Sequence record: PV340556.1
Strand: one strand, 5' to 3'
Source: Escherichia phage PhiR29_1
Length of the DNA: 46,273 nt
The notes under the pieces are model-generated. The model made no database searches, was not told where the DNA came from, and worked only from the letters and a program-made list of their open reading frames with translations. How positions within the stretch are numbered: the stretch's first letter is position 1; the number at the start of each line of letters is the position of its first letter. The position numbers and the translations under genes are program-made. This document shows, piece after piece, positions 4,991-5,132 of the stretch.

Positions 4991-5013
4991 ATTACTACTG
5001 TTGTGGATATCCA

Positions 5014-5029
5014 GATTGTTAAAGAGCTA
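5014..5029 (-). promoter_or_regulatory. boxA-like antitermination element on the leftward transcript (nutL candidate), preceded by a hairpin
   Basis: Minus strand reads AGCTCTTTAACAATC; the core GCTCTTTAACAAT matches my recollection of the E. coli rrn boxA (TGCTCTTTAACAATTTA) and resembles lambda boxA (CGCTCTTA); about 100 nt downstream of the predicted PL start. Confidence 0.45.
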
Positions 5030-5052
5030 AGCGTCCTGTAGGGCGCTTTTTT
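5030..5052 (+). terminator. Rho-independent terminator for the 4499-4990 gene
   Basis: Stem AGCGTCC/GGGCGCT (loop TGTA) followed by TTTTTT, 40 nt after the stop codon. Confidence 0.7.
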
Positions 5053-5132
5053 GTTGCTAACGAATCATCCTGGACTTCATATGCCCCAGGCGGCTACTTC
5101 GTGGGCGTCCTGCCTGTTTGTTGTTTCTCTTG

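Follow-up and report, generated by a model that had tools for sequence, protein, structure and literature searches.

A consensus rrn-type boxA and a conserved structured leader RNA on the early-left transcript of the lambdoid phage PhiR29_1

The early-left promoter (PL) region of Escherichia phage PhiR29_1 (PV340556.1; 46,273 nucleotides (nt), all of which were analysed and are called the window below) carries an rrn-type boxA on the minus-strand PL transcript, in a region where an earlier sequence-only reading (the original prediction) had seen no recognisable N gene. The boxA, GCUCUUUAACAAU, was identical to the published rrnG leader, CACugcucuuuaacaauuua (PMC2724277), over 13 of 13 contiguous bases that take in the boxA and the start of the spacer. 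Together with the hairpin before it, the boxA is a portable boundary module of about 50 nt belonging to an accessory-gene slot downstream of PL. We give an even chance to the reading that this module loads Nus factors against Rho as an accessory of the antisense cassette, with no need for N. Directly after PL lies a second element, a structured leader RNA, which is the better candidate for the means by which N-less lambdoid phages get past terminators. The features around the boxA were as follows.

5165-5138, minus strand: PL promoter, TTGACA-16 nt-CATAAT, 11/12 consensus match
5027-5015, minus strand: rrn-type boxA GCUCUUUAACAAU, at about +105 on the PL transcript
5029-5054, plus strand: intrinsic terminator AAGCGTCCTGTAGGGCGCTT then a T-run; 8 pairs, 5 of them GC, then TTTTTTGTTG
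4487-4990, plus strand: accessory (moron) gene antisense to PL; phrog_1244, E 3.5e-56

Anatomy, conservation and mobility of the boxA module

The predicted PL was present as a near-consensus promoter, from which transcription probably starts near 5131, as judged from its sequence. The transcript then runs through A6 (5052-5047), the hairpin GCGCCC-UACA-GGACGC (5046-5031, extendable by AA/UU on the PL strand), UUA and the boxA (5027-5015). A hairpin followed by a boxA with an rrn-like 13-nt core had been predicted for this transcript, and both parts were borne out; the order of hairpin before boxA is also the order in rrn. The sequence at 5027-5015 reads as the rrn-type consensus, (U)GCUCUUUA with an ACAAU spacer. 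A given 13-mer is expected by chance 2 x 46273 / 4^13 = 0.0014 times per window, and the 12-mer GCTCTTTAACAA occurred as a single exact copy in the 46,273-nt window. The boxA observation is real and well beyond chance. Looser boxA matches were at chance level (5 found vs 3.76 expected), four of them having two mismatches.

Other components of a nut site (a boxB, an N gene and a nutR) were not found beside this boxA on the early transcript. No N homologue was detected by PHROGs or Pfam among the open reading frames (ORFs) of 3600-5200; the search set comprised minus-strand ORFs of at least 30 amino acids (aa) between PL and yfdP, the plus-strand gene and the early-right ORFs, and also took in the first sense ORFs of phages SfV and SfIV. 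The annotation of PhiR29_2 (PV340557), which was 100% identical to the window over the query, likewise contains no N, with Q the only antiterminator-type entry listed, in agreement with the original prediction. The Pro-rich, GTG-started ORF at 4103-4390 (minus strand), which had been named as the only candidate, was present and gave no family match. A canonical nutL served by a highly divergent N encoded nearby would suit the position downstream of PL and the consensus boxA, but we consider it hardly credible. No conserved hairpin (boxB) lies 3' of the boxA, and beyond AACAATCTGG the module classes diverge from one another. The sole conserved hairpin of the module is 5' of the boxA, and its loop sequence is free, unlike that of an N-binding boxB. 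N-family matches were lacking in the whole search set, and a motif search of the window gave no second boxA or nutR on the PR side. A boxA-like string with two mismatches, ACTCTTTAACCA, does occur on the PR transcript at 5986-5997 (plus strand), inside cro near its 5' end; it has the frequency expected by chance and is missing the essential first G.

The hairpin next to the boxA proved to be a canonical terminator on the plus strand, where the stem 5029-5048 is followed by TTTTTT and lies 39 nt past the stop codon at 4990 (terminator scan), giving the GC-rich stem-loop and U-run after a stop codon that are typical of an intrinsic terminator. In context, the hairpin had a free energy (dG) of -12.1 kcal/mol on the plus strand and only -7.5 kcal/mol on the PL strand, one stem position being G·U on the former and a C·A mismatch on the latter. 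The 3' arm GGACGC, which is the source of the PL-strand mismatch, was kept in 18 of 21 module variants. The plus-strand stem and T-run, the bias in stability and the conserved arm together show that the hairpin is a one-direction-biased terminator of the convergent gene 4487-4990 and not a boxB analogue or nut partner. Searching with the hairpin only (AAAAGCGCCC-N3-6-GGACGC) returned mostly unrelated loci, 7 of 102 having the boxA; this count is about that expected by chance for the estimated collection size and is uninformative on the module.

The convergent gene encodes a coiled-coil and zinc-ribbon protein with no Pfam or PADLOC assignment, and no defence system was assigned by PADLOC to the cargo genes of the module loci. 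Its start is probably the GTG at 4487, as judged from the sequence; the homologues begin (M/V)IAELSAAM. The coding sequence deposited in PV340557 starts at window position 4262, about 75 codons too far upstream, and this over-extended start runs into a conserved noncoding block described below.

Conservation of the boxA was assessed in the 21 distinct module variants, which were retrieved through the leader RNA only, the boxA not serving as bait. The core GCTCTTTAA was present in 20 of the 21. Its surroundings varied: the preceding base was A, C or T, the hairpin loop was free, and from about 12 nt downstream onward the sequence differed. First-base variants with U or C reproduced the rrn (UGCUCUUUAACAAU) or the lambda-like (CGCUCUUUAA) form. 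In every leader-linked copy the boxA was on the PL-sense strand. This pattern would fit a site for a sequence-specific protein and argues against pure hitch-hiking.

The hairpin and boxA were found in many surroundings, indicating that they travel as a unit. The exact 21-mer GGACGCTTAGCTCTTTAACAA occurred in at least 120 IMG/VR contigs, and among the 124 occurrences listed the flanks were of 26 kinds upstream and 22 kinds downstream. In almost every class, an opposite-strand ORF ended 14-50 nt from the module, and these ORFs belonged to several unrelated families. By a crude ORF-length criterion, all 37 of 37 de-duplicated boxA-positive loci had a dominant antisense ORF just downstream, while boxA-negative loci were mixed; many module copies are near-identical and hence not independent. 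SfV matches the window in cI, in PL and over ~70 nt from the start of the PL transcript; the match breaks off exactly before AGCAACAAAAAAGCGCC, and homology does not return until about 4404. In SfIV the module is present, similarity ends directly behind AACAATCTGG, and the antisense gene is a different one. Leader and module were found together in approximately 1087 of 5426 complete E. coli genomes (about 20%). The cassette itself is bracketed by repeats, listed here.

4992-5017: PL-proximal inverted-repeat arm, 26 nt, abutting the boxA and overlapping its last 3 nt
4438-4463: distal inverted-repeat arm, 26 nt, overlapping one direct repeat TCCCCAACAACAA
4415-4427 and 4448-4460, plus strand: direct repeats TCCCCAACAACAA, 33 nt apart, upstream of the accessory gene

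The two inverted-repeat arms are 85% complementary, and their consensus, AATCTGGATAYCCCAACA, was found after the boxA in other cargo classes too. In SfIV and elsewhere, related sequences form the boundaries of other cargo. Pairing of the arms on the PL transcript could loop out all 528 nt of the cassette; alternatively, they may be recombination boundaries for cargo exchange. The direct repeats are kept in SfIV despite its other cargo and may serve the slot as an operator or as part of a promoter.

Such boundaries suggest another account of the boxA, in which it has no function on the PL transcript and is the hitch-hiking 3' end or recombination boundary of a cassette that spread recently. The module abuts the inverted repeat around the cargo, identical 21-mers are found in the many contigs counted above, boundaries are kept while the cargo differs between loci, and viable close relatives do without the module. 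We nevertheless regard this account as unlikely. It leaves unexplained a 13-nt identity to the strongest known NusB/E site at an expectation of 0.0014 per window, an invariant core set among a varying linker base, hairpin loop and downstream sequence, variants whose first base moves only between the rrn and lambda types, and the PL-sense orientation of every leader-linked copy.

The leader RNA and the noncoding block downstream

About 65 nt directly after PL were conserved behind many promoter and immunity types and before many first genes. This stretch has the following parts.

5122-5059, minus strand: structured PL-leader RNA, 64 nt, with covarying P1 and P2 helices
5122-5117 paired with 5064-5059, minus strand: leader P1, with one A·C mismatch in the window copy
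5090-5086 paired with 5073-5069, minus strand: leader P2, with loop GGCAUAUGAAGU, then GAUGA

The joining strand between P1 and P2 (28 nt, CAGGCAGGACGCCCACGAAGUAGCCGCC) was near-invariant from Escherichia to Aeromonas phages. When 57 distinct sequences were aligned, P2 was a hairpin of 5 base pairs with CG, GC, UA and AU at three positions. P1 took the forms AGCGAA/UUCGCU, GUCAUC/GAUGAC, ACCACC/GGUGGU, AUCGAA/UUCGAU and others, and was revealed by divergent members from Pectobacterium ZF40, Yersinia YeP1, Aeromonas pAEv1818 and mEp237. Changes on both sides were seen in 12 of 16 pairs (31 sequences), and the covariation score was 0.456 vs 0.122 when shuffled (0/500) and at most 0.089 with slid partners. 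The leader model, R1, scored 95.7 bits and matched the window once, with no match in the PR operon. The leader core was found in 118 species-representative genomes, mostly Enterobacterales, with at most 4 copies in one Xenorhabdus genome, and the leader was present, with or without the module, in 1812 of 5426 complete E. coli genomes, about a third. A sigma-70 promoter (at least 9/12) lay directly upstream of the leader in 57 of 110 loci vs 5 of 110 controls, and the modal distance of 12 nt from the -10 to P1 places the beginning of the leader about 5 nt into the transcript.

No Rfam family was found for the leader or the boxA module in a permissive scan of 3600-6300, whose one result above noise was the STnc100 near-match described below, and a scan of the whole window at gathering thresholds returned only IS009. 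No paper quoting the leader sequence was found in the open-access literature, and the element is apparently undescribed. None of the annotated leader-bearing phages examined (SfV, SfIV, ST64B, 118970_sal3, mEp237, ZF40, YeP1, pAEv1818 and PhiR29_2) has an annotated N. In the cryptic prophage e14 of K-12 (BW25113, locus L453 5001-5080), PL and the leader lie between ymfK and ymfJ, the ymfJ ATG is 25 nt past the leader, and the boxA module is absent. A second conserved noncoding element, GCGCAGCAGGUUUAAACGUUCCGCUGGCCAGCGUUACAGGCA, follows leaders of the GUCAUC and ACCACC types (loci L019, L061, L041 and L005; L331 3575-3625 in mEp237; L334 in pAEv1818). In Klebsiella phage Kp4882-1 it precedes the boxA module and the leader is absent.

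Promoter-proximal RNA can itself serve as an antiterminator. The put RNA of HK022 stays on RNA polymerase as nascent RNA and suppresses terminators, acting in cis through the zinc-binding domain of the RNA polymerase beta' subunit without protein factors, and HK639 reportedly has putL alone. Because of its position, size and structure, the invariance of its unpaired bases across hosts and its N-less context, the leader is most attractively read as a put-like, cis-acting antiterminator, a reading that we hold tentatively and at somewhat less than an even chance. It is also quite possible, though short of even, that the leader is the main N-independent antitermination device of these phages, with the boxA at most auxiliary; this overlaps with the anti-Rho reading of the boxA, and both may hold. 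The abundant compensatory changes in two helices, the near-invariant joining strand, a start about 5 nt into the transcript, the many PL and immunity types before it and first genes after it, the absence of an annotated N from the carriers and a strong terminator downstream in the operon all speak for such a role. However, a BLAST search with putL found HK75, O276, phiEt88, HK639 and others and no leader-bearing phages, and R1 had no match in HK022, so that the two families are disjoint. The leader is a domain closed by P1, as against the two-stem V shape of put, and it occurs once, with no copy in the PR operon. Its position would be just as well explained by a 5' stabiliser or by a site for a protein.

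Three other relationships of the leader were considered and rejected. The strings shared with put (CGAAC..GGC and GGAUGA) stand in different structural contexts and do not indicate kinship. For an immunity RNA that pairs as in P4, no complementarity to the leader of 11 nt or more was found in the window, and 9-10-mers were at chance. A hammerhead-like core (GAUGA/CGAA) is missing the required CUGA, and no Rfam ribozyme matched.

The original prediction had also offered an RNA-based, put-like mechanism within 4020-4470. The features of this block were as follows.

4363-4140, minus strand: STnc100-like RNA, Rfam RF02076, 42.4 bits, gathering 47, E 3.3e-7
4189-4143, minus strand: terminator-like hairpin, 13-bp stem GGCGGUACCAGCU/GGCUGGUACCGUC then C-UUUUU, dG -25.7, z -3.44
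4147-4049, minus strand: 99-nt hairpin just before yfdP, dG -46.5 kcal/mol, z -6.14

The STnc100-like match spans the model from end to end and falls below the gathering threshold. Its 3' end is formed by the hairpin 4189-4143, which none of 200 shuffles equalled in stability. The hairpin predicted at 4055-4141 was present as the 99-nt hairpin, whose 5' arm takes in the U-tract of the terminator before it. The STnc100-like block showed no promoter-like site of its own. The block 4404-4020, upstream of yfdP, was 96-98% identical in SfV, SfIV, SfII, mEp460, cdtI and Stx2c phages. A put-like antiterminator would agree with a block so conserved and highly structured, yet we judge it highly improbable here: the match just below threshold is to a family of small RNAs (sRNAs), a strong terminator-like hairpin with a U-tract stands at the end, the distance of about 750-1100 nt to the promoter sets the block apart from put, and relatives of STnc100/PasD are found within late, antiterminated operons, beside Q and downstream of stx2. 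The block looks like an embedded sRNA plus a terminator to be read through, and the RNA-based alternative was probably right in spirit and wrong in place.

A possible role for the boxA in crossing the antisense cassette

From the PL start to the yfdP ATG (4005), about 1.1 kb, no sense ORF with family support was found, so the boxA has the promoter-proximal placement in a long untranslated transcript that is characteristic of rrn. Long untranslated RNA is a natural substrate of Rho. Because the PL transcript would be exposed to Rho over this distance, we propose that the boxA module is an anti-polarity device. On the plus strand, the hairpin and T-run would terminate the convergent gene, the G·U/C·A asymmetry keeping termination good on that strand and poor against transcription from PL. 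For the PL transcript itself, the boxA, 3 nt past the weakened hairpin, would most likely bind NusB-NusE (S10), which with NusA, NusG and SuhB would convert PL elongation complexes to an rrn-like, Rho-resistant form. RNA polymerase could then cross the untranslated RNA, first the antisense of the accessory gene and then the STnc100-like block, and reach yfdP through xis-int. What the sequences show directly is the rrn identity, the build of the terminator, the modularity, the pattern of conservation and the lack of N; that Nus factors bind, that Rho is resisted and what the leader does are inferences from them. Read-through of intrinsic terminators such as 4189-4143 would more plausibly be the work of the leader RNA; SfV passes the same terminator without a boxA, and the boxA is therefore not the means past it. 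We know of no boxA complexes that overcome strong intrinsic terminators. In rrn, boxA and spacer are enough against Rho-dependent terminators, and boxB and boxC are dispensable (PMC2724277). Recruitment of NusB/E by boxA is the key assembly step in both rrn and lambda-N complexes (PMC12360218).

Several observations weigh against this anti-Rho role. Of 99 species-representative genomes, 13 had the module no more than 220 nt from the leader and 86 lacked it. It was also absent from e14 and from SfV, a viable infective phage that still has PL, the leader and the noncoding block further downstream in common with the window. Antisense cassettes without a boxA follow the same leader in four retrieved loci (L177, L203, L191 and L218), and with many near-identical copies, part of the apparent conservation may be recent spread. 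The C-over-G bias of the PL transcript across the cassette, an indicator of rut sites, was unremarkable. A put-like leader could suppress Rho termination alone, making the boxA redundant, and in some contexts (suhB, hisG) a boxA promotes Rho termination (PMC12360218).

SfV, e14 and the 86 of 99 relatives without the module show that the boxA cannot be the general early antitermination mechanism; it is optional and dispensable and is not the core antitermination device of the family. Loss of the boxA from relatives in which the region stays functional had been foreseen as evidence against the original prediction, and such loss is seen in part: the module is missing from these genomes. Host Nus factors alone, another route offered at the outset, are the most likely way for the boxA to act, but only as an optional accessory linked to the cassette.

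The documented enhancement of Rho termination at suhB and hisG (PMC12360218) would allow a negative or regulatory boxA, with NusB/E repressing the next sense ORF or boosting Rho termination and so damping early-left expression. The commonest module class, that of SfIV, agrees with this in that a strong ribosome-binding site (RBS) and a 68-aa phrog_1744 sense ORF follow the boxA at about 40 nt. However, in the window and several other classes there is no sense ORF for more than 1 kb after the boxA, and the strict association with antisense cargo is what would be expected beside an anti-polarity device. We consider negative regulation improbable.

Taken together with the leader, the anti-Rho reading leads to a broader proposal that we put forward as a possibility, with less confidence than either of its neighbours above that concern the main device or the boxA. 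The leader may represent a new class of promoter-proximal, cis-acting antiterminator RNA, an analogue of put with unrelated sequence and fold, and form with the boxA a two-part, protein-free system. The rrn-type boxA would have been added where an antisense accessory gene was inserted, recruiting the host Nus complex against Rho.

Neighbouring features, significance and related systems

The window is a lambdoid phage whose nearest relatives in the boxA region are the Shigella phages SfV, SfIV and SfII. From PL, the order on the minus strand is yfdP, yfdQ, yfdR, eaE-like, yfdT, xis and int. The immunity region is of the type of e14 (ymfK/ymfT/ymfL), and the PL promoter sequence of e14 is identical to that of the window.

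5205-5879, minus strand: cI (YmfK-like), with a terminator at 5174-5193 and PL just downstream
5970-6170, plus strand: cro, with the CII-like YmfL next
3643-4005, minus strand: yfdP, first recognisable translated gene of the PL operon

The window has neither orf37 (annotated "immunity region") nor orf38, which in SfV are located to the right of cro; YmfM (window 6768-7106) replaces them (L001 703-1539), the N-terminal similarity being weak. Transcription-termination-mediated immunity has reportedly been published for the orf37/orf38 region. In many related prophages, phrog_1744 (68-76 aa, motif xEPKIxxxGxTxEExxxWM) with a strong RBS is the sense gene that comes first behind the leader or boxA, as at L004 1831-2037 (SfIV, unannotated), L027, L137 and L200. 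It occupies the position of lambda N and is not Arg-rich. The full-length Rfam IS009 match (229.5 bits) is at window 40146-40344 (plus strand), in the tail-fibre region.

Textbooks illustrate N/nut antitermination with early expression in lambda, and its only well-studied protein-free alternative is, to our knowledge, the put of HK022. A 2025 study of a related N-less phage only suggested "perhaps put" (PMC12315714). For a large and common group of lambdoid prophages without N, two concrete candidate elements are offered here. If the anti-Rho reading is true, a lone rrn-consensus boxA would extend antitermination by Nus factors only to phage operons interrupted by antisense genes. The boxA module would be a variant of Nus-factor-only boxA antitermination, which is already known, and the leader RNA is the more novel of the two. 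If its antiterminator reading is true, the leader would explain early-left expression in SfV, SfII, SfIV, ST64B, phiNP, LLS-like phages and e14, and its mechanism would span about a third of E. coli genomes and 118 species. Its presence in e14 of K-12 makes it directly accessible to standard E. coli genetics. The strand-asymmetric terminator would be a route for inserting convergent accessory genes without blocking the operon.

Among known systems, the E. coli rrn leader (boxB-boxA-boxC, with NusA/B/E/G, SuhB and S4) is close to the boxA module: it has the identical GCUCUUUAACAAU and a hairpin before the boxA, stands near the promoter of a long transcript that is not translated, and involves no N. 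The window differs from it in having no boxC and an upstream hairpin that is a convergent terminator and not the rrn boxB; its putative site is in a phage early-left operon at the boundary of a mobile cassette. The suhB leader and hisG also have a lone boxA without N on a non-rRNA transcript, in connection with Rho-dependent termination, and a boxA has reportedly been described in the leaders of CRISPR arrays. Those are chromosomal or CRISPR loci, some of which promote termination, whereas the window site is in a prophage early operon at an antisense slot. Lambdoid nutL and nutR (lambda, P22, 21) share the boxA downstream of PL and the expected recruitment of Nus factors. Unlike them, the window has no boxB 3' of the boxA, no N gene and no nutR partner, and its boxA is the full rrn consensus, whereas that of lambda is CGCUCUUA.

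The noncoding block resembles STnc100/PasD in its conserved CACCGGGAGGCACCCGGCACCA core, its 3' terminator, its prophage origin and its place inside an antiterminated operon, although it scores below threshold (42.4 vs 47) and lies in an early-left and not a late operon. The leader resembles the put of HK022 and HK639 in that, like putL, it is found at the very beginning of the PL transcript in a lambdoid phage without N, is structured, is about 65-70 nt long and lies upstream of terminators. It differs from put in having no similarity by sequence or covariance model, another architecture and a disjoint set of phages.

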